Assembly: GCA_049599475.1 (NCBI GenBank)
Contig: JBMYOQ010000041.1
Span: forward strand, 1 to 36,360
DNA length: 36,360 nucleotides
From: Opitutales bacterium
GTDB lineage: Bacteria > Verrucomicrobiota > Verrucomicrobiia > Opitutales > JABSRG01
Direction of reading: 5' to 3'
Below the pieces are notes generated by a model that had not been told where the DNA came from, searched no databases, and was given only the letters and a program-made list of their open reading frames with translations. The position numbers and the translations under genes are program-made. The first letter of the stretch is position 1; every line of letters starts with the position of its first letter. This document shows, in pieces, positions 10,001 through 30,018 of this stretch.

Positions 10001-11877
10001 GTTGAGTTTGAATCAGTCGGGAGGGTGACGAAACGCTTGTTGGAAAGGGTGCCGTCATTGGGGTCGATGTCGAAAATGCTTAGGGTGTCATCACCCCGGC
10101 GATTATTGGCATAGAGAAACTGTCCGTCGCTACTCATCAGGATATCTGCTCCGGGGCGTATCGATGCGTCGGTTACATTGTGTGACACGTATGTTTCGAC
10201 ATGAGTGAGTGTGCCTTGATTGTGGCTGTATAGCTCTATTTCTCCAGAACCAGTTTCTACGACGTATAGATATGTGTCACTAGAGTTTATTACCATGTGC
10301 CGAGGGCCTGAATCCAGGCCCGTAGAAATGCTCTGTGTTTGAGTTAAAGGCTGAGTTGCCGCTTCGTCTACCGCGTAGACTATGATCTCGTCATTGCCCG
10401 TATTCGCAACAAACAGATATTCTCCTGAATTCGAAAAATATGCGGCGTGTAGATCGTCTGAATTGTCGCCGAACTGAATTTGCTGAATAGGGTCAGTGAG
10501 GCTGCCATCACTATTGCGGGAATACACTGTCAATCGGTGAGCAAAAAAGTTAGCTGTTACTACTAGGTTTCCGCTCGGGCTCACTGATACATAGGTTGTA
10601 TTGACCTGTTCGCCATTGCTCGGATTGTCGAGTTGTTCCTCGATGAATTCTACCGACCCGAAGGTGTCATCTATGCTGTATGCTGCGATTCCTGTATTGT
10701 TGGAGCTGAGATAGAGATTATCGAACTCTGGAGAGGGGCTGGTTCCTAAATGCCATACATTGGCGTGTCGATCGCGGCTGTTTACGAGGCTCAATGTCCC
10801 TGTCGTCGGATCGATAGAGTAGACTTGAAGACTGTTCGTTGCGGCTTCATCTCTGGGTCTACTTCCCAGGTAGAGCTTATAATCATCGATGGGCTCACGT
10901 TCTGTGATATCCATCTTCAGGCTCCACAGATCCCAGAAACCTGTGGGGTCCGTGACGCCATCGCGCACGCTGTGAGCCAGGACAATGATATCTCCATGAT
11001 CCATTTTCCAAGGGCCGGGTATGGTGCTCGTGCTTAAATCGTCGGGCGTGAGTTTCAAGCCCATTGCGCTCCCATTGCCAGGACCTGAGATCAGGCGATT
11101 TTCGCTTACATCAAAGACGAAGAAATCGACGGCGACATCAGCATCTCTACTGGTGAACCGTCCCAAGTGCAGATCCGAAATGACTAGCTGGCTGTCTGCG
11201 CTCAAACCGATATTGGTAAAGGTGTATCCGGCATCCGAACCCACATTCACTCCGAAAAATGCAGATGTATTAGGATCTGCCTGTATATCGCCCTGTGTGT
11301 CTACTGTCAGAATGAGAGCCTCGCCTAGAGTGCCAATTCGCTCGGGGTGCCCCGGGTAGCCTGCCCCCAAGCCCAGATAGCCGGACTGGTCGTGCTCACT
11401 ATATACAGTATAGCCGTAGATATTACCTCGGTGTCCATCGACTAATGCCGGGTTCCGACTCTTCAGGTAGAGTTGAAAATCGCCTCGAGCTAGGGCAGTC
11501 TGGGCATCCTCGCTATTCCAATCTTCTACTGCCTCTAAGCGATAGCCGTAGGTGTCGTTTAAAGCAGGAGATGAGAAAGTAGTGCCGCTGGCCGGGACAT
11601 CTATGTCTTCGTCGGCCACGTAATGAAGCTCATCGCCATAGAATTTAATTTCGCTCCCATCCCAATGATACATGAAGTCCTTGTAAGCCTCATGGCTGCG
11701 ACCCTCGGTTCGGATGGTTATTTGGGCTTCTAGCAAACTGTGAGCGCCCAGCAAACAAGCCAAAAGGGTGAACAGTTGGGCGCGAGGGATTGAAAAGGCG
11801 ACGCTCTTCGTGAGCTCGCGATTGCTTTTTGAGCAGGTAGTCACGCGGCAGTCGCGTACAGGACCATTGAGAGTCAT
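4084..11877 (-). CDS. Large secreted multidomain protein: lactonase-like beta-propeller, Ig-like (Big) repeats, Calx-beta, SbsA Ig-like, PKD, YVTN-type propeller, C-terminal di-heme cytochrome c (CcP/MauG superfamily-like) and verrucomicrobial-type C-terminal domain
   Basis: Signal-like LFTLLACLLGAHSLLEA-Q; GPRHMVI and GQFLYANNRR (lactonase-type propeller); NPP/LPPxV...DxDG Ig repeats; GTATPGEDY...DSEVEGEE (Calx-beta); YNWDFGDG...HTYTQTGRF (PKD); two CxxCH motifs (CAACH 5236-5250, CVACH 4822-4836) with TPTLWG..APYLHHG; tail DFDGDSISNFNEFIYGLNP...STDLHTW...RFYRLEV. ATG 11877 chosen over the TTG at 11922; start uncertain. Confidence 0.8.
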   Translation of the reverse strand: MTLNGPVRDCRVTTCSKSNRELTKSVAFSIPRAQLFTLLACLLGAHSLLEAQITIRTEGRSHEAYKDFMYHWDGSEIKFYGDELHYVADEDIDVPASGTTFSSPALNDTYGYRLEAVEDWNSEDAQTALARGDFQLYLKSRNPALVDGHRGNIYGYTVYSEHDQSGYLGLGAGYPGHPERIGTLGEALILTVDTQGDIQADPNTSAFFGVNVGSDAGYTFTNIGLSADSQLVISDLHLGRFTSRDADVAVDFFVFDVSENRLISGPGNGSAMGLKLTPDDLSTSTIPGPWKMDHGDIIVLAHSVRDGVTDPTGFWDLWSLKMDITEREPIDDYKLYLGSRPRDEAATNSLQVYSIDPTTGTLSLVNSRDRHANVWHLGTSPSPEFDNLYLSSNNTGIAAYSIDDTFGSVEFIEEQLDNPSNGEQVNTTYVSVSPSGNLVVTANFFAHRLTVYSRNSDGSLTDPIQQIQFGDNSDDLHAAYFSNSGEYLFVANTGNDEIIVYAVDEAATQPLTQTQSISTGLDSGPRHMVINSSDTYLYVVETGSGEIELYSHNQGTLTHVETYVSHNVTDASIRPGADILMSSDGQFLYANNRRGDDTLSIFDIDPNDGTLSNKRFVTLPTDSNSTAIDLDPTENFLFVTCTAGGTLETFSRDSATGDLSYLPENQISGLDRPYSLVIPDKSFQRRDKNPPEVSFAASTPATLNVGYTDLSIWADVLASENAIYKVSLYLDGALILSDAETPYQFITDLANPDDPLARLPIGEYVFKLVSTDIYGGQGIAEKQIEVIDPEDQNLPPQVSVVKSYTSENGAHNGGAFASIIINAEDPDGTIKSVELFNGSNSVWEFTTQRQDSPYYIFDSAQDGSASALNNNSGSHTFTIVATDNDGLTSSVDHTIQYTNPSNGSYGFNDTPRPRILASSTTNVVQGDEITIATSTEERRDDENIFIDSVELFVNGVSAGVGQPSNQGGDFSFTFSSNGTGSEILSNLGAGFYTLEMKATDTDGAFMITFMHLEVAADPTQTLAIALPNNTPEEVDMSYTSLAFEPTVTGPVSNVEMYLNDQLVGSIDTSPYSFNSTDFQDLGTLELGTYDLEFIVYDSENNQASVSHQFAVTTDLPVVYAERVRDGTEGLANEGRPRIGFYLTEALDEDLVLSLRHSGTATPGEDYSQGETMNITIQAGQTFRNITYNTTQDSEVEGEERIQATILQNSNYVTVPRRDSAVARLADDDTYAPGPGFSNEFQSDTPGTVLAEIPYLDGFDPNNPSDQDSRARSILIDYFNGYMFVDSRFVRERGTNTERNARIAYDISDLSNIREVSYKVSTRPQHTASILLPHHRFEASPQNVSNISNPLDIVAEDPPGYNLYGTSSRSNPALPYIYDGGSTIEIYDARISNEADALLATLDAHGFEAQAIPIGNLLIAVGIRGQDLRAVATYDISDPAEPFLLDKIENGSSQWITESNGRQDDRAYETFIWNNFIILPNSNRGNDAEFVDFSNPRDLQVITKIGSITGNSRYAQFQDNKMFLGDSTYDLSPLRNDPPEDPIKLDGFNSNGPLHEHFGEYMLPLGNLYVAAENTRQGANGRNQPIRFFAHEQNADSTRPQVTFHLPESDAENVPLTSRIGLIIHETLDYATINSSSLLVYPEPAEGEDPESITGSINISDKDILNFTPDIPLQKHTKYFVSWVVDEDQGIGIKDVSGNYIVPDSFSFTTIGDIKSTRISLETPTSSIGYPLAVNDSPSLEVIASGGEGVLRYNWDFGDGTSSGYSADNFRVSHTYTQTGRFEARVTVIDEENNFATESIFLTVADDIVESQMPSKSSQIILDKANRLVWCVNPDNDTISAINADTLIKVKEFSVGADPRSIALDDNGYLWVTCIDADRLEKIDPVSGALVDSLQFPYGARPSDIVFMTNYTYGFVSLSGSGEIIRFDPDLALNLADTHIPPRQIPTATALAIVDNLEILTSRFISPDSGGEVYTFNQIQRADRFTQVNGNDHIITITPDTTSPDDGSQARGIANYLSDIAISPTENHAYVIAKKDNIFAGTRSTLDTPTPLLPDTSIRTMIAKIDLSTKLEDVESRIDIDDSSQPSAIAFSDVGEFFFVALQGDNSIHVFDDFRGVKMGSFFDENAFAPQGLVFDQASARLFVKNLNSRDISVFNLSEALLTRNFTNTHEATIDVVQNDFSKFSEEVLTGKRIFYDAKDNRMSGNDYISCAACHQDGDHDGRVWDFTQRGEGMRNTTNLRGRAGMAHGNVHWSANFDEIQDFELDIVNHFGGDGFIEDLGAIKPDFPANAGRSEDLDALAAYVASLGKESVEKSPHREADGSLTMEALRGKQLFEGLVLPVSGEQLNCVACHKPTDEFTNSLPVPGQFELFDVGTLTEESGQRLSQETLTGVDTPTLWGLHASAPYLHHGGAATIEDVFNFSGSESDPNSPDINAHDVGTQASRTHTLNSTEFADLIAYLEQIDGRGEGAVSYEIWRQLWGQDIGAESLDFDGDSISNFNEFIYGLNPTVADTSERDSLPNIVIDRDSHYFEFMRRTNNTNLDYTVTTSTDLHTWQPIDLSNAASEDVVDSIQNVSVDITPGNEEKRFYRLEVSETP

Positions 11878-12253
11878 AGTAGGGGATCTGGAGGGGGGTG
11901 GGTGGGGGGAAGAATTGAACAAAAATTGTGTAACGAAAAATTATTATAAACTTACGGGTAGAACGATAGGCAGGTTGGGTGCGGGGATTGTTTAGGGGGA
12001 GGGCTCAAGGACCAAACAAAGGAGGGGACGAGCGAATGTTTATGAGTCCAGATTATCACTTTAATCATTAAAAAGTCCAATGAGATCCGGCGCTTAACAG
12101 GCCCTGTTTTGACGGAGTAAGCGTATTGAATGTATCCGAATTAAAGGGTCTTGGTGATAGGTATGTGTATGTGCGTGGCGCGATTTGAATATGCGCGCCA
12201 AGGTGAAATTGGCACCGTTCAGAGGCTCTACCAAACATGTGGAGACTCCATGC

Positions 12254-12334: not shown

Positions 12335-12688
12335 GGGGGTGTTTTTGGATTCGACTTCTGGCCGTAGGTTTGGGTGGCGCGTCGGAGTTGATCGCTTGGC
12401 TCCGTTATCAAGGCGATTACAAAAATTACTTGGCGAACAAGAATACGCCATGGCTGCCTAATAGCTGTAGCCCGTCCCATCCCGGATGCTCTCTAAGGGA
12501 ATGGGGCGTCGACTAGAGAGCACCTGTCCTTATCTTTCTCATCGGATAAGGACAAAATTTAGATGAGATGGTTTGGGAAAAGCGTGTTGCTGCGCGTTTC
12601 CTTCACGACACCAAATCAGCAAATACACGCGTAGAGGCCTATCCCGAAAACCAAAAGGACGCGGGTTCAACTCCCGCCACCTCCACCA
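12335..12688 (+). ncRNA. ssrA: tmRNA (one-piece), tag peptide (A)GEQEYAMAA
   Basis: 5' GGGGGTG...GGATTCGAC; 3' GGACGCGGGTTCAACTCCCGCCACCTCCACCA. Acceptor stem GGGGGTG/CACCTCC has the G3-U alanyl identity pair and an encoded CCA. Tag ORF GGC GAA CAA GAA TAC GCC ATG GCT GCC TAA TAG at 12432-12464; 354 nt. Confidence 0.97.
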
Positions 12689-12691
12689 TAT

Positions 12692-12704
12692 TATCAACGA
12701 CTTA
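12692..12704 (+). promoter_or_regulatory. IHF-consensus site in the attL arm
   Basis: TATCAACGACTTA matches WATCAANNNNTTR exactly, 3 bp after the tmRNA CCA. Confidence 0.6.
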
Positions 12705-12774
12705 CGGAATTCCTGCCAAATTCCTATCAAAAAGAAGTCGCATTCCCGCGCTGGGCGGCAAGACTAGGAAAGTC

Positions 12775-14004
12775 TTGGCAAAGAAGGAACAGAGCCCGCT
12801 CCAGGCCTGGGAATACCCGGCAGGGAGCTCCATCCGCATCCGTGAGGTCATTAACCGATATCAGGGGAAAGACTTCGGTGTGTCCTATCGTGTATCCATT
12901 CCTCTCAAATTAGCTGGTAGGAGAATCCTCAAACAGTTCGCCGATGCCGAGGAAGCTGAGGCATGGGCTGAGGCCGAATTTAAGGCTCTGCAGAAACGGG
13001 GATACAAGCATTACGAGGAACTTAGCTCATCTCAGCAGCAAGATGCTCGGGATGCCTTGGATATCCTCCAGGAGCTCGGCTTAAACTTGGTTGATGCGGC
13101 GAATTTCGTCCGAAAGAATTACAGGGTCGTTGACAGGAAGATCACGGTTTCTGATGCCGTGAAGGAAATGTTGAAGCTCAAAGAGGCCGAAAATCTTCGT
13201 CCGCGATCGATCAAGGATCTTCGAAATCGCCTAGCTCTCTTTGAATTGAGTTTCGGCGATGAAATGCTATCGGGGGTCGCGACGTGTGAAATTCAGAAAT
13301 GGGTGGATGAACTCACCACAGTGACGAAGGATGGGACGAGCAATATGTCTCCACGCTCCAAGAAGAACTATTTGGTGACCCTGAAAACCTTCTTCAATTT
13401 CGCGATCCAGAAGGGCTATCGAGCCAAAGAAGATAATCCAGCAGACGGCGTTGTTGTACCGATCATCGACTGGGAGGTGCCATCCATCCTGTCAGTCGCC
13501 GAAGCGCGCAAACTTATCGAGAAAGCTCGAAAATTCGAAGGCGGTATTTTGACTGCACCCATCGCCTTGGGACTTTTCGCGGGCATTCGAACCAAAGAGC
13601 TAGAGGAACTCGATTGGTCAGCCATCGATCTTGAAGAGGGGACGGTTACTATCGGCGCGAAGATCGCGAAGAAACGTGGCTTCCGTTTGGTAGAGTTATC
13701 AGAAAATTGCATTGCCTGGCTGAAAGCATCACCAGTCCAATCCGGTCAACTCGTGACCCATTCGATGCGTAAGATGATCCCGGGTCTTCACAAGGCAGCG
13801 GGATTCGAGAATTGGCGCGAAGAGAAGTCGAACGCGATGCGCCACAGTTTCGGCACCTATCACTATGCCTTGCACAGAAATTCAGCCCTCACTGCTTCGG
13901 CGCTCGGGCACAAAGCGAATGATCAGGTGCTGTTCGATAGCTACCGTTCACTTGCGCGAAAAAAGGACGGAGAGGCATACTTCAAAATTAAACCAAAACG
14001 CTGA
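12775..14004 (+). CDS. int: Tyrosine recombinase / phage-type integrase
   Basis: Catalytic motifs GIRTKEL (R), KIAKKR (K), NAMRHSF (variant of HxxRH), LGH and FDSYR (Y), plus a core-binding region. Start placed at TTG 12775 with AGGA at 12766-12769; the frame is open back to 12568, inside the tmRNA. Confidence 0.92.
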   Translation: MAKKEQSPLQAWEYPAGSSIRIREVINRYQGKDFGVSYRVSIPLKLAGRRILKQFADAEEAEAWAEAEFKALQKRGYKHYEELSSSQQQDARDALDILQELGLNLVDAANFVRKNYRVVDRKITVSDAVKEMLKLKEAENLRPRSIKDLRNRLALFELSFGDEMLSGVATCEIQKWVDELTTVTKDGTSNMSPRSKKNYLVTLKTFFNFAIQKGYRAKEDNPADGVVVPIIDWEVPSILSVAEARKLIEKARKFEGGILTAPIALGLFAGIRTKELEELDWSAIDLEEGTVTIGAKIAKKRGFRLVELSENCIAWLKASPVQSGQLVTHSMRKMIPGLHKAAGFENWREEKSNAMRHSFGTYHYALHRNSALTASALGHKANDQVLFDSYRSLARKKDGEAYFKIKPKR

Positions 14005-14218: not shown

Positions 14219-14301
14219 AAACCTCTATGCGCAGAACTCCGCTCATTTACCTGTTGAAATTTAGGCACGGGCGGTATTTTGGGGGACAACAGGTATTGAA
14301 T

Positions 14302-17300
14302 TTAACAAGCTTGGTCTTGGTGGATGAACACTAAGTTCCTAACGGCCCAGTATTCTAATTGCTCTCTAATTTTATGATAATTCAGGTGACTCTCATTGAA
14401 TCGCTTTTTGATTTCTTCAGGCTGAATTTCCAATATCGCATCTATAACAAAAGTAATTCGGTCAGTAGAATATTCCTCCTCTCCGAGGAAATAGAGTGTA
14501 TCTAGAACTTTGCATAACTTTGAAAGGTATTTTTCGGATTTACTTTTTGCTAGACCGGAAGTAACCGCTTCAAATGTTTCAATTTCTGGCGTATCCATGT
14601 AACTGAAAAGCCTATCGTATGATTTCTCTCTTTGAGACTCATGTAAATCTCCTATACTATTCGCGACCCAATATTTAAGGCCTTCGTGGCATATCTCATC
14701 GAAGTTTTTGAGTAGGTCTAAAATAGTGCGTTCATAGTATGCCCTTGTATTGCTTTTCTTTCTTGATTTGCTGATGAATGAGAAAAGATACGGGTATCGA
14801 AAATTACCTATATCAGTCCTTTTGATTTCCGCTAAAAGCAGATCCTGAATATTTGTTAAATCAGCATCCAAATAGAATAGTTGATCAAGAATAACTCTTG
14901 AAATATCTTCGTCTTCGGTATCCATAGCGACTTGGAAAACCCTCTTGATTATCGATTGATCAGTGCTCCGTGCTAGTGCTTTGGAAGCTCTATTTATGAG
15001 CGATAAATCAGTTGTTGATTCTAGAATTTTCGCAATTGGATCGCCCTCAGAACCTAGAGAAACTCCATTTAGTGTATCCAGTGCAATGCTTTGTATAATG
15101 TTTTCGTTAGGGTTTAAGTGTAATGAATTAATTATTACATTATAAGATTGAGAATCGATACCGCCTTTAAAATCCAAAGCAAAGTACTCTGAGGGTTCTG
15201 ATCCTGTTCTAGCTATGTCGATTTTCTTATTAAAGAGAGCTATTTTTACTTTTGTAGAATTTGAATTTATAAGATAGTCCCAGATGTGCTTGATGTCTAC
15301 GTTGTTAGCGCTTTTTAGCATGTCACATGCGACATCAATACAGTTCTTTTCGTCATAATAATCTAGGTTTTTAAGAATATTAATTTTCTCTCTGTATGAA
15401 GTCATATTTGAAGACATTTTCGATAGCATGACATTAAGATTATCAGGATAGGCATACAGGATATTTTGTATTTTTTGGTGGAGTTCAAACTTTTTACTTT
15501 TCTCCATAGATTCCGATAAGCCAGTTATCTCTCTAATGGAATCGGGGACTTTCGAAGATATTGCGCTGATGTTTGAACGATGAGTCCAAAACTGAAGATG
15601 TGTTTCATTGTTATTCAGTGCTTGAACCATCTTCTCCGAAACCCAAACCGGATCTAGTTGGACTATGCATTCAATGCTGAGCCCATTCCACCTGAATTTA
15701 TTTATGTTTTGAATCAGGCCTCTTCTAATCACGTCAACTAATTTAAGGCTAGTTTTGAGGGAGTGTCGCATGTCGGCGAACACCAAGGCCGCATAGCAAT
15801 AAATCAATCCGTAGAAATCCGGATTGTCTAAGACATTTTCCCAATAGGTTAAGAAATTATTGAAATTGCAGGACCGTTTTTTTGTTGAGCCAATAAAGAA
15901 CTTCCATTCCTCAACATGCTGCCAACTCAAACCATATCTTTGTATGATCTCTGAGAATTCGTCAGGGGGCAGGGAATCCAGCTTTCTCCCTGCTAGGTAT
16001 TCTTGTATAGAAAAGTGGACGAAAGTGTAGTTTTGGTCAAACCCTCGTTGCTTCGTTATAATTCTCGAACGAGTAAATGATTCATAAGCGTCCGATGTCT
16101 TTATTAGTCTGTGCAGGTTAAATTCAATCTCCTTCTCTTTAGCTGTGAAACTTAGCGAAAAGGCTATTTCAGAAAATAATTTAATATCACTGTCTCGTAA
16201 TGTTGGGTGATATGACTCGGATCGTTGATACTTAATTGCCAGTCCCAGTAACTCTTCTATGAGAGCACTGGTTGATTCAATTTTTTGATTAGATGATCGA
16301 GGCTCGCATAAAACCTCGCATAGCGTAGTCGTTAAAAATGGATTTGTTGCTAGGCGCGATAGGGATTTGTCTTTATCAAGACGCTCAAGAATTGTATTTA
16401 TATTTTCAGGCTTTTTTAGGCTATTGCATACGCGCGTTACTAAGGCTCGCGTGGATGGGATACCCAAATCTTCAAGCTCATAAATTCCTGTATAACCGCC
16501 GCTTAAGAAACTGGGTAAACCAACAGGCCGTGTAGTGATAATTACATCGGCGAAATACTCAATGCTTCGGACTTCTAAAAGGTATCGCTGTTTTAAGCGA
16601 TCAGGGACTTCATCCCACCCATCAAAAATGAAAGTTGGTTTGATTCGGGCGTTTTCAAACAGATCCTCGAGTTCTTGTAAATCCGAAGAGAAATCCTTCT
16701 GTTTTGTTGCACAAAATCGTTTTAGAAAAAACTTTGTGATTGGTTCTACTTCACAGCCCTGGTTGGAACTTACGTAATCGCGTAATCTGACTACGATCGG
16801 AATTCGTTTCCACTTTTTGATGTCGGAGATAAGGGTGTGCGCTATCCACTTCGTGAGTGTTGTTTTTCCGAAACCAGGGCCACCCACAAAAATACTTACG
16901 TTTCTAAGAGTAAGAAGGATTGAATTGACTGATCGTGTAGATGGCGTTTCTACGGCATTGTCGGTAATGTTCGCATAAATATCTTTTACTTGTTCACTCT
17001 TAAAACGATCGTAATCCCGGCAGCCAGGTTCTACATAAATTTTTTCGATTGGGACTGGGTTCGATCCGAGTATAGAAATTGAATTCCATTCCGGCGACTC
17101 TAAGAGGGTCTTTTTCCATTGCTTCAAGCAGCGCGGGAGTAATACCTCAGCGGGTGCCTTCGGCTTGTGAATAGCAGCTCTTACGTGATCGGGTGTCTTG
17201 AAGCCCGGCCAAGTAAGAGGGTGAGATAAATGAAAAATTTTCAGGATTTTCTCGGCTGCTAATTTGAGATCACTGTGTCTGAGTTCATTGGTGGTGAAAG

Positions 17301-17859
17301 GAGACTTAGAATCTGGAGAGCCATTGTTGAGGACCTGAGCGTCCTTAAAAGTATCTTTTTTCAGCGAAACCTGAATTTTCGGGAAAAAATATGTGATAGC
17401 TTCTACTTGGCTCTTTCTTATCTCCGCACCGTTGGTGCATTGAAGTAACGGATCCCACACCTGAGACCACTCACTGCTACCTATGTTATTTTTCAAGGAA
17501 AGCATCTTTAGGAACCATTTACAGCGGCCATGACCAGAAGGTTGAAGCATTCTTGCAAGGTCCAGTGCAGGCCCTTTTCCAGTTCCACTCAATAGAAGGA
17601 TTTTTTGATCAGACCCAGGAAGCTCATCCACTTGTAAGATTTTCGCGTAAATGAGCATAAGTGCTATGGCGTGGGCAGAAACCGATGCGCTGGAAGATTC
17701 TCCAAAGATCATCGGGGACCCTATAGTGTAATGCACTTCCCCCATCTGAATGTCATTGGTTTTGCTTGTTGGCGTTGTGCAAAGTGCGCGCATAGATTTC
17801 AAGCTGAAGTCTTCATTCAGTTCTATGCCGAAGGCTTTAATGTCGTGATCGAGGCTCAT
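14302..17859 (-). CDS. NACHT (STAND/NLR-like) NTPase with unassigned N-terminal domain and C-terminal helical (HEAT-like) repeats
   Basis: IEKIYVE pre-NACHT motif, Walker A GGPGFGKTT, IPIVVRLRDY, Walker B FIFDGWDE, ITTRP, LATNPF, winged-helix FVHFSIQEYLAG. Visibly AT-rich. ATG 17859 preferred over 17970, which would overlap the divergent ORF as called from 17931. Confidence 0.88.
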   Translation of the reverse strand: MSLDHDIKAFGIELNEDFSLKSMRALCTTPTSKTNDIQMGEVHYTIGSPMIFGESSSASVSAHAIALMLIYAKILQVDELPGSDQKILLLSGTGKGPALDLARMLQPSGHGRCKWFLKMLSLKNNIGSSEWSQVWDPLLQCTNGAEIRKSQVEAITYFFPKIQVSLKKDTFKDAQVLNNGSPDSKSPFTTNELRHSDLKLAAEKILKIFHLSHPLTWPGFKTPDHVRAAIHKPKAPAEVLLPRCLKQWKKTLLESPEWNSISILGSNPVPIEKIYVEPGCRDYDRFKSEQVKDIYANITDNAVETPSTRSVNSILLTLRNVSIFVGGPGFGKTTLTKWIAHTLISDIKKWKRIPIVVRLRDYVSSNQGCEVEPITKFFLKRFCATKQKDFSSDLQELEDLFENARIKPTFIFDGWDEVPDRLKQRYLLEVRSIEYFADVIITTRPVGLPSFLSGGYTGIYELEDLGIPSTRALVTRVCNSLKKPENINTILERLDKDKSLSRLATNPFLTTTLCEVLCEPRSSNQKIESTSALIEELLGLAIKYQRSESYHPTLRDSDIKLFSEIAFSLSFTAKEKEIEFNLHRLIKTSDAYESFTRSRIITKQRGFDQNYTFVHFSIQEYLAGRKLDSLPPDEFSEIIQRYGLSWQHVEEWKFFIGSTKKRSCNFNNFLTYWENVLDNPDFYGLIYCYAALVFADMRHSLKTSLKLVDVIRRGLIQNINKFRWNGLSIECIVQLDPVWVSEKMVQALNNNETHLQFWTHRSNISAISSKVPDSIREITGLSESMEKSKKFELHQKIQNILYAYPDNLNVMLSKMSSNMTSYREKINILKNLDYYDEKNCIDVACDMLKSANNVDIKHIWDYLINSNSTKVKIALFNKKIDIARTGSEPSEYFALDFKGGIDSQSYNVIINSLHLNPNENIIQSIALDTLNGVSLGSEGDPIAKILESTTDLSLINRASKALARSTDQSIIKRVFQVAMDTEDEDISRVILDQLFYLDADLTNIQDLLLAEIKRTDIGNFRYPYLFSFISKSRKKSNTRAYYERTILDLLKNFDEICHEGLKYWVANSIGDLHESQREKSYDRLFSYMDTPEIETFEAVTSGLAKSKSEKYLSKLCKVLDTLYFLGEEEYSTDRITFVIDAILEIQPEEIKKRFNESHLNYHKIREQLEYWAVRNLVFIHQDQAC

Positions 17860-17972
17860 TTTTGGACAGAGGCTGTAAGTATACAGGCGTCCTGATAGTA
17901 TACAAGTGATATACAGGTCACTGTACAGAGATGACCTGTTGTCACCTCGGCGAAAAGGGGAATCGGGCAAAA

Positions 17973-18938
17973 ATGCGGAACATGGCTAAAACACCATGTA
18001 CTATTCTTATACCGACAGATCCGGAGGCTCTAGCTATCTGGATCTCTGAAAATCGTGCTAAATATATCAATCTAGTCCGTTCTCATGACATCTCAGAGCA
18101 GGATGCGGAGGATATATACAGTAATTACACTAAAACGTTAATAACGTTAGGGCCTAAAAGGCTTGGTATTCCGAGTATTCAAAGCTTTGTCATGCGACTC
18201 TATCGTAATCGTGATAATTTCATCCGACGTCGTAGTGCCAACAAACGACAGGGAAGCAATGCCGGTCTCGATTTCGTTGAATACCAAGAGCGCATTTATA
18301 ACCTGTCCAACAGCGATGAATTCGCAAGCTGGATATTGGCGCACGGTCCCTTCGCGATTAATTCGATCTTAGCAAGAGCGAGTGATCTGACGCGAGAGGA
18401 TGCCGAGGATATTTTCGGGGATCTTCTCATGGGTCTCACCTTTCGTGGCTATGACAAAATCGGAGAACCGACGACTCAAAACCTCATGTGTCATTTAAAG
18501 CGTTATTATATTCGTTTCGTTCGCAGACGAAATGCCCAGAAACGCGGTTGCGGGGATGCCGATGCTGCGTTTGCGGATTATCATACCAGTCTTTTTGGTA
18601 AATTCTCCACGTCTTCGCCAGATATTCGAGTCGGGTACCGTGATCTGCTAGGTCGAATTATCGACGATGCATCGTTCTCGAAGTCGATCAAGGAGAGGTT
18701 GTTGCTCGATTACATCGGTATTCTTCAGTCGGACGATGTTCCGGCTATTTATGAGGCGATGTCTGCCCGCGAAAGAGGCAAGTTCTTGCCGAGGAGAAAA
18801 GTGGGTGCAGAGGAGTATCGTAGCGTGGTTCAGAATGGAATGCACCGAACACTTTCCGAGCTACGCAAGCGCTTGCGCCACTTTCGCAAAAAAATGTCGG
18901 AGCAGATCGCGCTGCCTCACGCATATAGCTCTGAATAA
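17973..18938 (+). CDS. ECF sigma-factor-like protein with tandemly duplicated region-2-like domain
   Basis: Two copies of W...DAEDI(Y/F)...F(I/V)RRRxAxKRxG, 99 aa apart; C-terminal VVQNGMHRTLSELRKRL resembles the region-4 recognition helix. Start is 17973 or 17982. Confidence 0.6.
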   Translation: MRNMAKTPCTILIPTDPEALAIWISENRAKYINLVRSHDISEQDAEDIYSNYTKTLITLGPKRLGIPSIQSFVMRLYRNRDNFIRRRSANKRQGSNAGLDFVEYQERIYNLSNSDEFASWILAHGPFAINSILARASDLTREDAEDIFGDLLMGLTFRGYDKIGEPTTQNLMCHLKRYYIRFVRRRNAQKRGCGDADAAFADYHTSLFGKFSTSSPDIRVGYRDLLGRIIDDASFSKSIKERLLLDYIGILQSDDVPAIYEAMSARERGKFLPRRKVGAEEYRSVVQNGMHRTLSELRKRLRHFRKKMSEQIALPHAYSSE

Positions 18939-18965: not shown

Positions 18966-19235
18966 ATGGAAACACTCTTTAATCCGGATACCATCGCGAT
19001 TCTTGCGCAGCTCACCAGTCTCACTGACGCTGTGCAGCAGGCTATGGAGACCTTCAAGCTTATCATTGGGATGCTTGTTATCGGCGTGATCATTTACGCG
19101 GGCATTCTCTTTAGCCAAGGCCAGATTGCCCAAGCTGCTTACTGCTTCTTTGGAGCAATCGTGATCGCCACAAGCTTCTTGGTGGCTTCTAGTCTGATGG
19201 AAGCGACTGGTTCAGATCTCCCACCACTCGGTTAA
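18966..19235 (+). CDS. VirB2/TrbC-like pilin (two hydrophobic helices)
   Basis: 89 aa, two TM segments joined by SQGQ, first gene before the VirB4-like ATPase. Confidence 0.55.
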   Translation: METLFNPDTIAILAQLTSLTDAVQQAMETFKLIIGMLVIGVIIYAGILFSQGQIAQAAYCFFGAIVIATSFLVASSLMEATGSDLPPLG

Positions 19236-19236: not shown

Positions 19237-21990
19237 GTGAAGGATAAACCAGAACTACGCTGGAAATCCACCCACTTCTCCGACGAGCGACAAATTTCCG
19301 TTGGGAAATTTGTAGGAGCCCAAGTCTACGGACTTGGGCTTTCCTTAGTTTTAGGAATCTCGGTAGTGGGTGTGTTAGTACATAGCTTCAATTGGCCCGT
19401 TGTAACGAGTGCGCTGCTCGGGGCCAGTTTACCCATCGTGACCGCTTGGGTCTTACTTAAATTCGTCGTAGACAAACCTCGTGGATATATGACCGACCTG
19501 CTTGAGTGGAAGATGCGCAATCTTTCAAAGACCAGTCTCCTTCCACGGAATCAGCGGGGTTCGCAGTATGCCAGTCGCATTGAAGGAGACGCTGTCATCC
19601 ACGGCGATCCCGAAAGCTCTCTAATTCAGGGGGTTCGCATCGAGCTGCCCGGCTGGGAAAATCGCTCGGAGGAAGAGCTCCTAAGCCTTGAATCGATGAT
19701 TCGAGGGATTTTGGGCCACGCTCAGAATGATATACGCCTGCAGTTCAAGTGGTCTACAGGCTCCTATGATAGGGCGATTTTAAAACGCTACTTCGATGAC
19801 ACCGAATTGAAAGGGAGCAACGCTTGGTGCCGAGAACAGCGGAATTTCAATATCGCCCGACTTGCTGAGCAGAACAAAAGCGGGGTTCTGCGCGAGCCGA
19901 AGGTCCAACTCTTCTTATCGAAACCCTTATCTTCCGGCGAGAATGCGGTTCAGACGGCAAAGGCAGAATTGCGTTTGCCTATAGAAGACATCATTCGGCG
20001 AGTGAAATCGCTCGGTGGCTATGCGCAGATTTTATCAGAGTCCGATTTGATTGAGTTGCATCAGAAGCACTTCCATGTATCGGATAAAGAAGGCCATTTC
20101 GATCCTAACGTTTCGATTCTGGACACCTTGCTTGAGGGCGAAATCGAGGGGTGCGAAGCACCTGGTGCCAGTATTTGTGTCAATGGCGTTCATCATGGTT
20201 TCGCGATAATGAACAGCGTTCCATTGGCTACCATTCCTGGTATGATGGCATCCATTGCCCTTCTGGAGTTCAATGAATTCAGTATCAGCCTTAAAGTGCG
20301 TCTCATCGACCGAGATAAACTGATCCAGAGTGAGGAGAGTGAAGTAGAAAAGCTTGAAAGGGCGTATCGCGCGAATGGTAAAGAATCCCTAACGAGCACA
20401 AGTCAGAGCATCCGTCAGCGCATCAAACGACTGCTCACGCGCGAATCGCACCCGATGCACTTCCAATTGTTTGTTCACTGTTGGGCTGATTCACCAGAAC
20501 ACTTATCGAAGCGACTCAAGAAAGCGTCAGGGATGATCGAAGCACTCAATGCAGCTAAATCACATGTCCTCGAAGTACCCACTAGTTGCTGTAAGGCATT
20601 TTTCAATACGATGCCCGCAAGTGGGTATTCGGATGATCAAGGAAAACAGTACCTAGAAGACGTGAATCTCGCCGATTTGGTTCCGATTTGTGGAGGCAAT
20701 GGTGAACTTGGGACGAAAAATGAAGCTCTCTTCAACGCGGCTCACGGTTCTTTGCATGGTTTAAACACATTTAGCCCCCAAACGGGTTCTCCCCTCCATT
20801 GTATGGTTACGGGAAAAACGGGTGTAGGCAAGAGCTGCACAGTGAGCGAGGTGGCCACCCAAACGGGTATTCATTTTGATACCACGGTGATCTTGGATTC
20901 CGGCAAGTCGCATGCCTGCTTTGTCATGGCTAATGATAAAAACGCGAGGGTTTTAGAGATCGATCAACACAGTAAGGAAGTTCTCAATTACATGAGTACA
21001 AATGGAAGCCCATTCAGTCCTGAACACTTGCAGGCAGTGGTCCCCATTGTAGGCATTTTTGCTGCAAAGTTCATCGAATCTGTCGAGTATGGAGAGTCCC
21101 TCATATCTGAAAAACTCAATGAGTTTTATGAGTATTGGGCAACGCGGGGTGATGGGGTTAAAGTGAAAGATGGTTCCACTGCATGGTATTCTTTTTACCA
21201 CAACTTGCCTGAGGAAAAGCAGCCCACGCATTCCGATTTTCAAGCGTGGCTGAAGGAGGACTCGAAGAAAGAGTCCGAGTTTTCACACAAGGTGAGTATC
21301 TTGGCCCTGATCCTATCTCGTTGGTGCAAAGGCAAAGGGGGGCCGTCGTTGTTTGACGGAGTGGGGACGGTTTCTTTGACAGGGAAAACGGTTTATGTTG
21401 AGCTCGGGAAGTTAGCGTCTGCCCCGAAAGAGATAAAAGCAGTGACTGCGCATATTATCTCAAATATCATTGTTTCACATTTGATGCGTTTGCCACGCGA
21501 CTTGCCCAAGCGCATTATTGTCGAGGAACTGGGTGCATTTCTGGATATCGAAGGGGCCCATGCTGTTATCCGTAATCTCTACGAGCGTATGCGGAAAAAT
21601 AACGTTTGGGTGTGTGCGGTTATACAGCAGATTTCGAATCTGCCCAACGAAATAGCAGCTTCGGTTCTTGGTAATTGCAGCCAAGCAATCATTCTTCCCC
21701 AGAAATACGAGGCAGATGTTCGCATGCTTCAAAAGGCGTTTAACTTGCCTGACGCTGCCGTGCAGCGTTTGAAGAGCTTTGGTCCGCCAACGAAAGAGAC
21801 GGGGGCTCCTTTCCTCCACATGGTCAGTGAAGGTGAGCGTGTTCAGGTAAATACTGCTTATAGCATAGCAAGTCCAGAAATGCTGTATGTCTCCGATTCA
21901 GGTGGAAAGCACTTCGAGAAACGCGAGAAGGCATTGGCACAATACGACGACATTCTTGAGGGCATCTCTATCGAGGCGCGGAAACCCTAA
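19237..21990 (+). CDS. virB4: VirB4-family conjugative ATPase with fused N-terminal VirB3-like membrane domain
   Basis: Two N-terminal TM helices followed by DKPRGY; Walker A GKTGVGKS, ILDSGKSH, SLFDG, Walker B region RIIVEE, MRKNN...VIQQ, VLGNC; 917 aa. Confidence 0.85.
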   Translation: MKDKPELRWKSTHFSDERQISVGKFVGAQVYGLGLSLVLGISVVGVLVHSFNWPVVTSALLGASLPIVTAWVLLKFVVDKPRGYMTDLLEWKMRNLSKTSLLPRNQRGSQYASRIEGDAVIHGDPESSLIQGVRIELPGWENRSEEELLSLESMIRGILGHAQNDIRLQFKWSTGSYDRAILKRYFDDTELKGSNAWCREQRNFNIARLAEQNKSGVLREPKVQLFLSKPLSSGENAVQTAKAELRLPIEDIIRRVKSLGGYAQILSESDLIELHQKHFHVSDKEGHFDPNVSILDTLLEGEIEGCEAPGASICVNGVHHGFAIMNSVPLATIPGMMASIALLEFNEFSISLKVRLIDRDKLIQSEESEVEKLERAYRANGKESLTSTSQSIRQRIKRLLTRESHPMHFQLFVHCWADSPEHLSKRLKKASGMIEALNAAKSHVLEVPTSCCKAFFNTMPASGYSDDQGKQYLEDVNLADLVPICGGNGELGTKNEALFNAAHGSLHGLNTFSPQTGSPLHCMVTGKTGVGKSCTVSEVATQTGIHFDTTVILDSGKSHACFVMANDKNARVLEIDQHSKEVLNYMSTNGSPFSPEHLQAVVPIVGIFAAKFIESVEYGESLISEKLNEFYEYWATRGDGVKVKDGSTAWYSFYHNLPEEKQPTHSDFQAWLKEDSKKESEFSHKVSILALILSRWCKGKGGPSLFDGVGTVSLTGKTVYVELGKLASAPKEIKAVTAHIISNIIVSHLMRLPRDLPKRIIVEELGAFLDIEGAHAVIRNLYERMRKNNVWVCAVIQQISNLPNEIAASVLGNCSQAIILPQKYEADVRMLQKAFNLPDAAVQRLKSFGPPTKETGAPFLHMVSEGERVQVNTAYSIASPEMLYVSDSGGKHFEKREKALAQYDDILEGISIEARKP

Positions 21991-22048
21991 ATTAATTCGC
22001 GGAGCTTAGACGCTCCCTGCGCATATCAATCTGAATACTCAGATTGAT

Positions 22049-22357
22049 ATGCATTATCTTAAATACATTACTCTAATTACGTGCGCGGGTTCATCCGCGC
22101 TCTTGTCGACCGGTTGTTCTTCTGTCGGCTACTACAATAGGGAGCAAATGCAGGGCTCCTTGGACTACGCTCATGATCGTGGCTTCACCGATGGGGTTGG
22201 ACATCAAATACGGCTGAATGAGCACGAACGCCAGAACGAGCTGGAGAAGCGCCAGATCAAGGAGACTTACTACCGCATCCCTGTGAGTGGGCATACGACC
22301 GAAGACGGCATCATCATTGAGCCACATGTGGTGCCTATTCGTATCATCACCGATTAG
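22049..22357 (+). CDS. Small lipoprotein, VirB7-like by position
   Basis: Signal peptide with lipobox-like LSTG-C; 102 aa; inside the T4SS operon. Confidence 0.5.
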   Translation: MHYLKYITLITCAGSSALLSTGCSSVGYYNREQMQGSLDYAHDRGFTDGVGHQIRLNEHERQNELEKRQIKETYYRIPVSGHTTEDGIIIEPHVVPIRIITD

Positions 22358-22362
22358 ACGTC

Positions 22363-23163
22363 ATGAAATATTCACTACTTGTATTTTTCGTCTTTATTTT
22401 GACGTGCATGCCATTCACTTCGTTGGAAGCTGCATGGCCGGTGGTTGACTACAGCCAACTGCAATTGAAGGCTTTTACATCAAAACGGGCTATTCTTCAG
22501 GAAATCCTTCAAGAGGGTAACCAGCGTGTTCAAATCCTTAAAATGGTGGAGCAGATCCGTCAGATTGATAGGCAAATCGAGCTCCTAGGTGACCCGAGCA
22601 AAGTAAACCTGAGGACATTGCGTCGGTTGTATCGTCTCATCGAAGATATCCCCATTTCCAAAACTGCGGAGGAGCTTGAAGCGGTCTTTCATCCAGATTT
22701 TCTTTTTGCGGAAAACGCGGCGTTTGATCCTGTTAGTCGAGAGATCCGGATAGACGGTGCTACGGTTGCTCAGCGCGATAGCGCGCTCTTCATTCCAGAA
22801 GTCAAAGCGCGGCAGGCATTCGATCACTACGACTCCGTAAAGAGCCACAGCCTAGATCGGCGGGCTGAATTGGACTCGGAGATTCAGGATGCTCTGGATC
22901 AATTACAAACGGCTCAGACCGATAGTGAAGTGCAGAAGCTCAATGGTTTGATCGTGACGCTCAACGTTCGCCGGGCTGAAATGAGCGACGAGATCGAGCT
23001 GGCCGCGACCGAAGCTTCGAGTCGTTTCTACCGTAATCGTGTCGAATCGGACATTGCTCGCAAGGTGCGTTTCCAGGATGAGCGCGTGCGTTATCGGGTA
23101 GGAGCCCAGAAACACCTCGAGTCCTTCCCCATGCTCGACTCACCCGTGATCTTTAAGCCATGA
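22363..23163 (+). CDS. VirB5/TrbJ-like secreted helical protein
   Basis: Signal peptide LEA-AWPVVD (the PVxD start typical of VirB5/TrbJ), Gln-rich coiled coils, directly upstream of the VirB6-like gene with ATGA overlap. Confidence 0.6.
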   Translation: MKYSLLVFFVFILTCMPFTSLEAAWPVVDYSQLQLKAFTSKRAILQEILQEGNQRVQILKMVEQIRQIDRQIELLGDPSKVNLRTLRRLYRLIEDIPISKTAEELEAVFHPDFLFAENAAFDPVSREIRIDGATVAQRDSALFIPEVKARQAFDHYDSVKSHSLDRRAELDSEIQDALDQLQTAQTDSEVQKLNGLIVTLNVRRAEMSDEIELAATEASSRFYRNRVESDIARKVRFQDERVRYRVGAQKHLESFPMLDSPVIFKP

Positions 23164-24203
23164 GCGAAGCAAACCTTATTGATAGTTTTCCTGTCATTTA
23201 CCAGACGTCTCAGGATTTGCACGGCCAGCTTCTTCCGGTTGCTTTTTTGTGTACTGGGATCGGCCTTGCAGTCCGGGTTTTCAAGGGAAGCTTTGGTGAC
23301 CCCTCTGGGCTTGTTCGTGCAGTCCTATCTGCATGTATTGTTGCGGTGTGTATCTCGCAGTTCGCCTTGTGGGTGAACTCCCTGCAGCTGGCGGCGCATA
23401 GCCTCGTCGAGAGCATGGATGTCAACCCGGCTGACACCAATCGCCGCTACGCCGAACTAGTGCTAGGAGCCCAGGAGGAGAATGCTGCGCCTCGAGGCTT
23501 TTGGGATATTTTGTGGTCTGATGATGCTGGGTTTGGTGAAGCAATCACATATGCTTTGATTTTCCTGTCATCGCAATTGGCGTGGGCGTTGAGCTACCTC
23601 TTGAAAATTGTGCAGCAGGTTATCCTCGTATATTCGATATCCCTGTCGCCGGTGTTTCTGTCTTTTTTCCTGATAGACTATTTAAGGCCGATGGCGGGAC
23701 GGTTCATTATGACGATCGTCAGTGTCGGACTTTGTCCTCTGGGCTGGGCTATCGCTGATCAACTGACAGATGCATTGATGCAGATGGCTGTCGGCACCGA
23801 AAATACTTTAGCAGGGAATAGTCAGGCTCTGTTTTTCGTTATTGTGCTGACTTTGTGGATACTCTTTAGCTCCATCGCCGCTCCCTTGGTGATCATCAAA
23901 ATTCTCTCGCAAGGTGCTGACGGGATGACGACCTTGCTTAGTGGCTTTGGCAGCAGTGTGTCTCAGGGCGCAGCGTATGGGGCTGGAGGTGCCGTTGCCA
24001 CGCACATGATGGGTGCAGGGCCTATCGCTACCTCAGCGAGTGCATTCGCATCTGGTGTTGCTGGAGTGGCTAGCGGTGCCGCAGGTCGCAGCAATATGCT
24101 CGTCCCATCCATGATCGGTCTATCCTTGGGAGCGGCATCGTCTTCCACGCATTCATCCGGGAGCTATACCGATCGAGCACGCGAAATCTTCGAAAAATCA
24201 TGA
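23160..24203 (+). CDS. VirB6/TrbL-like polytopic inner-membrane protein
   Basis: Five to six hydrophobic segments, LSPVFLSF and LCPLGWAI motifs, Gly/Ala/Ser-rich tail as in TrbL. Confidence 0.72.
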   Translation: MSEANLIDSFPVIYQTSQDLHGQLLPVAFLCTGIGLAVRVFKGSFGDPSGLVRAVLSACIVAVCISQFALWVNSLQLAAHSLVESMDVNPADTNRRYAELVLGAQEENAAPRGFWDILWSDDAGFGEAITYALIFLSSQLAWALSYLLKIVQQVILVYSISLSPVFLSFFLIDYLRPMAGRFIMTIVSVGLCPLGWAIADQLTDALMQMAVGTENTLAGNSQALFFVIVLTLWILFSSIAAPLVIIKILSQGADGMTTLLSGFGSSVSQGAAYGAGGAVATHMMGAGPIATSASAFASGVAGVASGAAGRSNMLVPSMIGLSLGAASSSTHSSGSYTDRAREIFEKS

Positions 24204-24802
24204 AAACCACTATGTCCATTATCAAACGCTACAAGCATATGACCCACCTTAGTTTGGGCCTATGCTTTCTCGTAATCGGGATTTCAACGGTCGATCGTTG
24301 GAATCTCGCGCGGAGTATCCAGGAAGGGCCGCGATTTGTCGTTGTCGACGATACAACCTTCATGTTTCCGCGCTCTTTCGTGTTTCAAGACGCGCATACT
24401 ATGCATCGTGAGCAAGCGGTCCTTGCAGCTACCACACTGCTGAGCCGTTCGCCTAGTGGGATCGATAATAGAGATCGTCTTGAAGCACTCTATCACCCCG
24501 ATGCCTTCGATGAGGCGATGAAGCTCGTGAACCGGGAAGACCCTGTCTTCCAAGCCAAGTCCATTCATCAAAAAGCTACGGTAGCTGAGACGCGCTTGCT
24601 GCATTTGAGTAATCAGGCTGTGAAGACATCCGTCATCGGTCAGCTGCTTCGCGTCGGTTTGTTCGAAGATGAGACCGTTGTCGAGGTCCTCGATTTTGAA
24701 CTCAGCAGCCATTTTGTGCTCAATCCAAACTCAGTCCAGAATGGCCGCTACCCCACTATTGTATCCGAATTTAAATTAAAGATTAAACCATCCTCATTAT
24801 GA
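24200..24802 (+). CDS. VirB8/TrbF-like bitopic protein (resembles Bacteroidota TraK)
   Basis: Single N-terminal TM, FVVVD, alpha/beta periplasmic part ending NGRYPTIVSEF; overlaps both neighbours by 4 nt. Confidence 0.6.
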   Translation: MKTTMSIIKRYKHMTHLSLGLCFLVIGISTVDRWNLARSIQEGPRFVVVDDTTFMFPRSFVFQDAHTMHREQAVLAATTLLSRSPSGIDNRDRLEALYHPDAFDEAMKLVNREDPVFQAKSIHQKATVAETRLLHLSNQAVKTSVIGQLLRVGLFEDETVVEVLDFELSSHFVLNPNSVQNGRYPTIVSEFKLKIKPSSL

Positions 24803-25659
24803 AAATCGCAGCCCTACTAGCACTCATATCTACGTCATTGATGGCGTATCAACCCAAGGATCCCGAATCCGTTCATCTGGATCCCGAGAATATTCTCCCT
24901 GTTTATCTGAATCAAAATATTGATACGCTTCTTTTATTCCCTGAGCCGATTGAAATGGTGTCTGGAGTCGGCTTCAGTGAAGATTGGGAAACCTCGGATA
25001 TTCACTACCGCGCTAGCTCCAATAGCTATCGTCTTGTTCTTAAACCTAAAAAGGAGGTCTTTTCAGCTTACCTCAAAGTGAGTATCGACGGAGACGTCTT
25101 TGTGCTGCACTGCCTTCCCAGTGAGACACCGTCTACAGTTATTCGTTTTAGGCCTCCTATTCCCGTTTTGGAACCGTTTGTCGTGACTGCCGAGATTGAT
25201 CTTCCTGAACTCGAAGATCTGCTCCGTAAACCCACCCGTGAACGGCAATTTGAGTTGATGCGCCTAACCTACGAGGAAGAGGTGCTGAGGAAGCAAATAC
25301 CGTCATTATTCGATGGATACAGCTCGAAGGTCGTAAACAAGTCACACACGTCTGGGCACTTTGAAGTGACATTTGAGAAGCTCGGGCGTTTTGCGCATGA
25401 AGATGCGCTTGTTGTGGTGGCCAATGTGAGTTTCCTCCCCGGATACCGCGACCTCGATCCTACTTGGAAGCTGCGTCTCAGGATAGGTCCACAGAAGGTG
25501 TTTCCTTTCAATGAAATCCATTTTATTGCTGCTCCGACCTCGGGCCACGCTCCACTGCAATTTGTCGCGATTCTTGTCGGAGACGGATTCGGGGGGCCCG
25601 GGCACTACAGTCTCGAGAACGACTTCCACATCGAATTCATCGAAAACGGGGTTTTCTAA
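24799..25659 (+). CDS. VirB9/TraN-like outer-membrane core complex protein
   Basis: Signal peptide, DTLLLFPEPIEMV motif, beta-rich, between VirB8-like and VirB10-like genes. Confidence 0.6.
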   Translation: MKIAALLALISTSLMAYQPKDPESVHLDPENILPVYLNQNIDTLLLFPEPIEMVSGVGFSEDWETSDIHYRASSNSYRLVLKPKKEVFSAYLKVSIDGDVFVLHCLPSETPSTVIRFRPPIPVLEPFVVTAEIDLPELEDLLRKPTRERQFELMRLTYEEEVLRKQIPSLFDGYSSKVVNKSHTSGHFEVTFEKLGRFAHEDALVVVANVSFLPGYRDLDPTWKLRLRIGPQKVFPFNEIHFIAAPTSGHAPLQFVAILVGDGFGGPGHYSLENDFHIEFIENGVF

Positions 25660-26576
25660 TGCGTTTACGTAAACGTACACGCCAGCTTCTGTTATTTACG
25701 GCATTGGTCCTAGTCCTCGGAGCTGTGGTAACGATCGACATGATCCGCAATATGAAGCCCAATCCGGAGGATACCGTTGAGCGCTTGCCGAAGATTCCGG
25801 TTATTCAGGAGGAGATTGATTGGAAAGACCCAGTGATCGATACGCCCGAGCCTGAGGAAATCTTAGCCACGTTTAAAGAAGACTTCGAACCTCTTCGTAT
25901 TCGTAAAACTGAGACAAAGGTTGCTCCACAGCCGGAGGCGGCCGAACCGGAACCTGTCGAGCTCCCCCCTGAGGCCTCCATTGTCTTTGACGAGCGTCCG
26001 GTCGTTCCTAAGGAGGAAAGCGCTGTCGACATTCTGGAGCTCCCGTTTGGCACTATGATCTACGCGCGCCTTATCACGCCAATCTACTCGCATAGCGCAA
26101 GTGGGCAGCGTGTCACCTTGGAGCTTACACGTTCGCTGGTTATTGATGCACGGTCTATTCTGATCCATAAAACGCGACTGAGTGGTAAGGTGACGGGCCT
26201 CAACAACGGGCACGTGGAATTCGAACGTCAGTGGCAGATCACCGATGGGTTCCAAAAAGGTAAAGTCCTCGAAGTTCAGCTTCAACAGGCCGACTACGAT
26301 CCACACACTGCCCGCTATGGTCCCTTAGATGGTGCGAATGGAATCCGGATGGCCGATGAGTCAAAGGATATCGAGATCGAGCCTACAAAGGCTGAACAGC
26401 TGTTCCTAGATATCGTAAAGCCTGCGATTTCTCGCAGCCTTTCACCGGACGATTTATATCTCCCTGATCTATCCGGTTTAGGCGGAGATCCCTTCGGAGG
26501 GAGTCCAGGCATGCCGCCGGATCCGCCCGGTTTCTTCGTTCCATCTGGAGCGCTTGTTTATTTAGTCGCAGAATAA
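25659..26576 (+). CDS. VirB10/TrbI-like protein
   Basis: N-terminal TM, Pro/Glu-rich linker, LPFGTMIYARL, DGANGI and terminal FFVPSGALVYLV, matching the TrbI/VirB10 beta-barrel pattern. Confidence 0.68.
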   Translation: MRLRKRTRQLLLFTALVLVLGAVVTIDMIRNMKPNPEDTVERLPKIPVIQEEIDWKDPVIDTPEPEEILATFKEDFEPLRIRKTETKVAPQPEAAEPEPVELPPEASIVFDERPVVPKEESAVDILELPFGTMIYARLITPIYSHSASGQRVTLELTRSLVIDARSILIHKTRLSGKVTGLNNGHVEFERQWQITDGFQKGKVLEVQLQQADYDPHTARYGPLDGANGIRMADESKDIEIEPTKAEQLFLDIVKPAISRSLSPDDLYLPDLSGLGGDPFGGSPGMPPDPPGFFVPSGALVYLVAE

Positions 26577-29761: not shown

Positions 29762-29777
29762 CGGACACATGCCCCCT

Positions 29778-29982: not shown

Positions 29983-30018
29983 CACCCGTTGTGGGTTCGA
30001 ACTACGAAAGGAAGTATT

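Follow-up and report, generated by a model that had tools for sequence, protein, structure and literature searches.

A Possible Regulatory Module of a Divergent NACHT Gene and an ECF-like Sigma Gene in a Verrucomicrobial Integrative and Conjugative Element

The window analyzed here is the whole of contig JBMYOQ010000041.1 (36,360 nucleotides) of an Opitutales bacterium (assembly GCA_049599475.1; the contig is C41 of genome G000 in our numbering). From a tmRNA gene onward it holds an integrative and conjugative element (ICE), and the contig ends inside that element. Between the integrase and excisionase genes and the transfer (tra) operon lie two divergent genes, one for a NACHT protein with a C-terminal HEAT-like region and one for a protein resembling extracytoplasmic function (ECF) sigma factors. 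Comparison with three related elements gives, in our estimate, about an even chance that the pair is a regulatory module resident in a small clade of verrucomicrobial ICEs, in which the sigma factor would activate transfer and the NACHT-HEAT part would be an exchangeable sensor attached to an N-terminal domain (NTD).

Two Divergent Genes at the Head of the Transfer Operon

As the first-pass annotation had proposed, the two genes stand head to head, with 113 bp between ATG 17859 of the NACHT gene (open frame 14302-17970, minus strand; 1185 residues) and ATG 17973 of the sigma-like gene (open frame 17931-18938, plus strand; 321 residues). The outward directions that it described also hold: the NACHT gene runs into the xis-like gene, whose start at 14218 lies across an 83-bp gap, and the sigma-like gene runs into the type IV secretion system (T4SS) operon, the pilin-like gene of which begins 27 bp past its end. 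Both proteins are present exactly in a public collection, which also has a shorter call of 248 residues for the sigma-like gene; homology between the NACHT protein and its G050 relative (see below) begins at residue 7.

Related Elements

The comparison covers four elements, namely those of the window, of G050 (a genome from another family of the order), of C87 and of L093. In a tree of 48 rows, in which long branches were flagged and from which two fragmentary loci were left out, their VirB6 proteins group together on one side of a branch with 100/100 support. Related records mostly bear Verrucomicrobiota titles, and only G000 and G050, of 401 genomes, have VirB4 at E below 1e-150. Two loci with Bifidobacteriaceae titles (L049 and L056) have a verrucomicrobial-type VirB6 nested among the Verrucomicrobiota rows, which might reflect mis-binning or wide transfer. 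Related loci were not found in viral contigs, in plasmids or in a VirB4 scan of metagenomes.

The G050 element has the same tra order, with a sigma gene of a single sigma2 domain before the pilin gene. Facing this sigma gene is a divergent gene for 358 residues, whose product lacks a NACHT domain and aligns with the NACHT protein only over residues 1-260 of the latter (E 1.7e-8); beyond it come a 459-residue HExxH protein, a xis-like gene, an integrase gene and a tRNA-Val gene. Two HExxH proteins of no assigned family are encoded in this element (L004 4920-6299 and L003 4886-6052), one of them directly behind the NTD gene, and they could act like ImmA.

The C87 element, a second one of this clade in genome G000 (contig G000:C87, listed as L005), also has the tra operon with a relative of the sigma gene before the pilin gene. 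An unrelated gene for 266 residues faces this relative, followed by RadC and a TPR-CHAT protein (1313 residues). The element spans L005 393-15154, and no integrase was seen on the C87 contig. An XRE resemblance noticed by eye in the C-terminal domain of the G050 protein and in the C87 regulator was not significant and was rejected as evidence, with 62 and 26 of 200 shuffles scoring as high and hhalign P values of 0.023 and 0.37, respectively.

In L093 the NACHT protein has a homologue along its full length (27% over 1160 residues, NTD included). The contig begins at the gene for this homologue, which is co-oriented with pilin-virB3-virB4-virB5-virB6-virB8 and separated from them by 235 bp. Since the homology has been kept at 27% while VirB4, VirB5 and VirB6 are 40-46% identical between the window and L093 ICEs, the NTD-NACHT-HEAT fusion is old and travels with the element. 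A 20.9-kb contig from run X2 matches the L093 NACHT gene exactly up to base 2338 and then continues in other DNA, the HEAT region being interrupted or swapped there. When reads were placed on L093, one X2 contig reached 3.3 kb beyond the upstream side of the NACHT gene, where a sigma neighbor could lie.

A sigma gene stands directly before the pilin gene in three of the four elements (three of three where the site is visible; the NACHT gene has that place in L093). An NTD gene lies at the tra head in three of four, the NTD is joined to NACHT in two of four, and it faces the sigma gene in two of the three elements that can be tested. The pairing of the NACHT and sigma-like genes seen in the first-pass annotation thus stands in a modified form: judging from the L093 homologue and from the G050 order (sigma gene, divergent NTD gene, then xis and int), it reflects a module that recurs at tra heads and not a one-off insertion. 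An obligate NACHT-sigma pair is not supported: G050 has sigma and NTD without NACHT, and in C87 an unrelated gene faces the sigma gene. A sigma gene kept while its slot holds unrelated cargo had been named in advance as one of the conditions that would refute a link; C87 is such a case.

The NACHT Protein and Its N-Terminal Domain

The protein falls among the NACHT/STAND NTPases (STAND, signal transduction ATPases with numerous domains). Its NACHT domain scores 29.4 bits against PF05729 (cut-off 26.7), and the Walker A, Walker B, sensor and winged-helix motifs are all intact. An N-terminal module, NACHT and C-terminal HEAT-type repeats follow one another as in the bacterial bNACHT proteins (10.1101/2022.07.19.500537). 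The same source lists transcription-regulatory winged helix-turn-helix (wHTH) domains among bNACHT N-terminal adaptors. Unlike the modules described there, the window NTD could be matched to no family in the libraries, is also found apart from NACHT, and is bound to the head position of an ICE tra operon.

Four further NACHT-HEAT relatives were found, all without the NTD, of which one ends in TIR (P0014) and one in CHAT (P0017). The relatives P0015 and P0016 have in common a 140-residue C-terminal domain of no assigned kind (E 4e-20 mutually). Given these NTD-less relatives and the finding of the NTD in the ICE clade only, the NACHT-HEAT body is a mobile conflict-type module, and the NTD the part tied to the clade. 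Composition divides the gene similarly. The AT-richness reported for it on first inspection is confirmed for the NACHT part (40.8% G+C) and the C-terminal part (about 36-37%; 37% for 15001-16000), the ICE core genes having 48-53%, but does not extend to the NTD, where the first 260 codons have 45.8%, close to the 47.1% of the sigma gene and unlike the NACHT body.

The NTDs of the window, L093 and G050 match one another at E values of 9e-7 to 2e-8 (pairwise, among about 7000 open reading frames). NTD profiles found no match in any other genome searched, 399 of them from the order and 400 from the class, the matches in G000 and G050 arising by construction. Neither the NTD nor the sigma-like gene was found at 20 more distant virB4 loci or at 46 other virB6 loci, in 16 of which the DNA upstream of virB4 is clearly visible. 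The NTD had no match in Pfam, PHROG, PADLOC, NCBIfam or the PDB sequences, no known effector domain being identified, and an ESM Atlas search gave no usable match. The predicted structure is poor (mean pLDDT 36); Foldseek returned nothing under E 0.001, and the best Z in VIA was 4.4. In a search for an N-terminal helix-turn-helix (HTH) or wHTH of the STAND-regulator type, neither the small OmpR-type winged-helix profiles nor the XRE ones were matched, the NTD model being too poor to judge by structure. As an architecture read from sequence, the NTD takes exchangeable partners: NACHT-HEAT in the window and L093, and a short C-terminal domain with a neighboring HExxH protein in G050.

Some of these features would also suit a stand-alone anti-phage protein of the nucleotide-binding leucine-rich repeat (NLR)-like type, with the NTD as a new effector domain, kept in the variable slot that separates int from tra, while the sigma factor regulates transfer independently. 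Bacterial NACHT proteins that act against phage have this effector-NACHT-repeat layout (10.1101/2022.07.19.500537), and the NTD sits in the effector position. The same NACHT body occurs with TIR or CHAT, the slot in C87 holds conflict genes (RadC and the TPR-CHAT protein), and C87 has no NTD; for these reasons we retain this explanation, while regarding it as rather unlikely. The low G+C of the NACHT and HEAT parts and the different orientation in L093 also fit it. It accords poorly with G050, in which the NTD has no NACHT and is still opposite the sigma gene, and with the finding of the NTD only in this ICE clade. Defense cargo usually moves between hosts and contexts, a habit with which a clade-bound NTD contrasts, and no PADLOC or NCBIfam defense model covers the NACHT protein beyond its P-loop.

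The Sigma-like Protein

Profile searches and predicted fold support an ECF-like identity for the product of the sigma-like gene. Its two sigma2-like copies are 31% identical over 98 residues (E 4e-15), and both have DAED, the acidic 2.2 motif of ECF sigma2 domains; DAED or a close acidic variant is present in eight of eight sigma relatives examined. A motif of this type is described as contacting the beta-prime subunit of RNA polymerase (PMC8999054). A search of 1.84 billion representatives gave nine matches: the protein itself, seven relatives (202-243 residues, 26-36%) and one repeat artifact (P0011), which was left out of the alignment. Two of the seven match TIGR02937 below its cut-off (E 1e-7 and 6e-6), and beyond the family members themselves the family profile picks up ordinary ECF sigmas next. 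Weak matches to this profile occur in 18 of 400 and in 3 of 37 genomes, and the six inspected (three per set) look like ordinary ECF sigmas. The window protein attains no curated ECF score and departs from the pattern of one sigma2 and one sigma4 domain; we file it as ECF-like, not as a member.

In the structural model of residues 113-321 (pLDDT 74), the best folds were RpoE (Z 8.1, root-mean-square deviation 4.0, 82 aligned) and SigR (Z 7.6, 1.9, 69 aligned). Such sigma2 matches are middling for helical folds, yet consistent in kind. The C-terminal domain resembles SigH sigma4 (Z 6.6) and SigD4 (Z 5.2), values close to those of unrelated helical folds, and has no sequence match. Foldseek ranks ECF sigmas first, at E 0.24 or worse.

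The doubled sigma2 domain is peculiar to the window protein, being single in the eight aligned relatives. A duplication in one of nine family members, together with an unclear integrase start, could mean that the element is decaying, its arrangement left over and the duplication a neutral accident. We find this very improbable, as the int, xis, NACHT, sigma and tra frames are all open, the motifs are intact, and the copies have diverged to 31% with DAED retained in both. Because no anti-sigma gene lies behind the sigma gene and the acidic motif for RNA polymerase binding is kept, the factor would need control from elsewhere.

The Divergent Spacer and the xis Leader

The 10-mer ACCTGTTGTC is common to the divergent spacer and the xis leader (Table 1), and at each site it reads in the direction of the gene that follows, sigma or xis. 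It has four occurrences in the 4.7-Mb genome. Matches of at least 10 bases to the divergent spacer are found in 12 of 1454 other spacers, and two ACAGGT copies in 2 of 1454. The 4-mer richness is modest: seven ACAG/CTGT units are reached by 12 of 1234 genome spacers, and for 6-mers 144 of 1234 are as high. A Sigma70 promoter scan found no promoter in the divergent spacer, nor any in the L093 gap on the strand of tra.

The shared boxes suggest that a single regulator serves both sites, for which the NTD, Xis and the sigma factor are all candidates. We lean toward an NTD that binds DNA at the ACAGGT-type boxes in both places, rather than one that binds the sigma protein as an anti-sigma, because its gene is divergent from and not co-transcribed with the sigma gene and because the boxes are present. 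A predicted complex of the NTD with sigma residues 113-321 scored 0.00, the partner fold being uncertain, and was not used.

Any common regulator would suit the divergent layout and the shared 10-mer, also in a reversed regulation in which sigma or Xis drives NACHT and xis from the shared boxes and the NACHT protein is an output, for donor protection, exclusion or donor death. An NLR-like system acts as an output in gene transfer agent release (PMC13236601). However, the bases after the 10-mer differ between the spacer and xis sites, which makes the two unlike one sigma promoter, and the persistence of the NTD with different C-terminal partners would go unexplained; we consider reversed regulation improbable.

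A Possible Mechanism and Its Standing

If the two genes are indeed the resident module, the ECF-like sigma factor would be the element's own activator of the tra operon, a role to which its place points, and the divergent gene would supply its control through the NTD. The HEAT region would sense a cytoplasmic cue, which may be a phage protein; the NACHT ATPase would then oligomerize, and the clustered NTDs would switch sigma and xis expression, by analogy with STAND transcription regulators such as MalT, GutR and AfsR. The switching would probably be an activation. In these regulators, a signal-gated STAND ATPase with a DNA-binding module acts on box arrays, and this is our working model. They are not NACHT-class ICE genes, and the window NTD has no OmpR-type winged-helix match. 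The three are named as STAND transcription regulators in 10.64898/2026.01.04.697583.

Several observations weigh against the resident-module reading. Only four elements could be compared, and in C87 the sigma gene occurs without NTD or NACHT. The L093 NACHT gene is inverted relative to that of the window and co-oriented with tra, with no sigma gene between and the upstream region off the contig. The box motif was chosen after looking, is not in the G050 or C87 spacers nor in most other ICE spacers of the window, and could be bound by Xis instead. The window sigma protein has no Pfam or NCBIfam match and reaches no curated cut-off, and profile, sequence and structure searches gave the NTD neither a DNA-binding fold nor a family. 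The effector position of the NTD and the TIR or CHAT of the NACHT-body relatives count in the same direction.

ICE induction is known mostly via repressor cleavage and small activators. Sigma-driven control has recently been described for Tn916 (bioRxiv 10.64898/2026.10.01.756105), whose Sig7-8 resembles the proposed factor in being an ICE-encoded positive regulator of excision and conjugation without a repressor. As described there, Sig7-8 has two subunits and switches stochastically, whereas the window sigma is one chain with an extra sigma2, adjoins tra and faces an NTD gene. Immune-type proteins are linked to mobile-element release in LypABC of Caulobacter (PMC13236601); this system lyses cells, has peptidases, is not on an ICE and has no NACHT with sigma. 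In CalpL-CalpT-CalpS, immune-type proteins are linked to an ECF sigma factor, but CalpS is freed by anti-sigma cleavage after a CRISPR signal, and this system too is not on an ICE and has no NACHT with sigma.

A further comparison is with ImmR/ImmA of ICEBs1, which the G050 element resembles in its divergent regulator followed by an HExxH protein, xis and int, and from which it differs in that no XRE match was significant for the G050 or C87 proteins. No HExxH partner turned up in the window, no search having been aimed at one. None of the nine HTH_3 (XRE repressor) matches of the genome is on the window contig, which lacks the XRE repressor at a divergent switch that characterizes CI/ImmR-controlled ICEs. 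The remark in the first-pass annotation that no CI/ImmR-type repressor is visible therefore stands for the contig only: the element is incomplete in the assembly, and since the contig ends inside it, a repressor could lie elsewhere in the element.

The Element and Its Setting

Table 1. Features of the element in the window
Feature	Position	Strand	Remarks
tmRNA gene, integration site	12335..12688	+	last 24 bases recur on contig C69 (candidate other element end)
Tyrosine integrase	12568..14004	+	PF00589 over cut-off; frame opens within tmRNA gene
Excisionase-like HTH_17 protein (xis-like), 69 residues	14009..14218	-	HTH_17 over cut-off
xis leader	14219..14301 (83 bp)		two inverted ACCTGTTG copies, 14249-14256 and 14287-14294
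C-terminal helical (HEAT-like) region, presumed sensor	14302..15984	-	HEAT_2 match weak, below cut-off; homologue P0013 has PF13646 (precomputed)
NACHT/STAND module	15985..17160	-	intact motifs; Walker A = residues 326-333
NTD, ~233 residues, no family assigned	17161..17859	-	common to L093 and G050 proteins
Divergent spacer, candidate operator array	17860..17972 (113 bp)		7 ACAG/CTGT units; two ACAGGT in inverted orientation
ECF-like sigma factor with duplicated sigma2-like domain	17973..18938	+	copies about 18015-18302 and 18303-18596, then sigma4-like helical domain
Pilin-like gene, first of tra operon	18966..19235	+	label suggested by size, hydrophobicity and place; kept in G050, C87, L093
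T4SS operon: VirB3-VirB4 fusion and six genes	19237..26576	+	P-loop_TraG match; gene order same in G050, C87, L093

The element has the integrase, relaxase, coupling protein, VirB4-type T4SS and duplicated attachment site of an ICE, the second attachment site being on another contig and its linkage presumed. Since the last 24 bases of the tmRNA gene are found again on C69, the ICE probably continues past the contig end. The true integrase start is probably after 12688. The names VirB5, VirB6, VirB8, VirB9 and VirB10 within the T4SS operon are putative, these proteins having no Pfam match. VirB3-like and VirB4 are fused in the window (19237-21990) and separate open reading frames in G050, C87 and L093. 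After the T4SS come genes for a coupling protein, a ParA-like protein, Fic, antirestriction, TrwC and a second relaxase.

Some other observations were made along the contig. At 33293-36343 there is a convergent relaxase pair, a short TrwC (442 residues) and a MobA/VirD2-like protein with MobC, which is also present in G050. Fic and ribbon-helix-helix genes are inserted in the element at 29989-31787, and GATAACCGATA-type repeat units at 29771-30020, before the divergence of fic and the parA operon, form a possible binding array. Contig C45 of G000 carries a 67% identical Fic, a relaxase, MobC and an integrase, and is perhaps a further element or a continuation of that of the window. Outside the element, at 4084-11922, a host protein of 2612 residues has beta-propeller, Ig, PKD and cytochrome c peroxidase-like domains.

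Conclusions

In its fullest form, the proposal is that an NLR-like receptor gates excision and transfer of the ICE: NACHT-HEAT would oligomerize on sensing a phage or stress cue, the new regulatory domain would turn on sigma and xis, and related elements would exchange the sensor but retain the domain and the sigma factor. We put this forward tentatively, as a doubtful possibility. A conjugation switch made of an NLR-like receptor and a sigma factor was not found in the open-licence literature, supplements aside (bNACHT domain tables may name the NTD). If the proposal is true, a conjugation switch would have taken over an immune-type receptor as its input, so that the sensing of infection or stress is tied to escape by transfer, and the NTD would be a new regulatory domain with exchangeable sensors. 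Even if the NACHT protein serves in defense, the NTD would be an undescribed NACHT effector domain.

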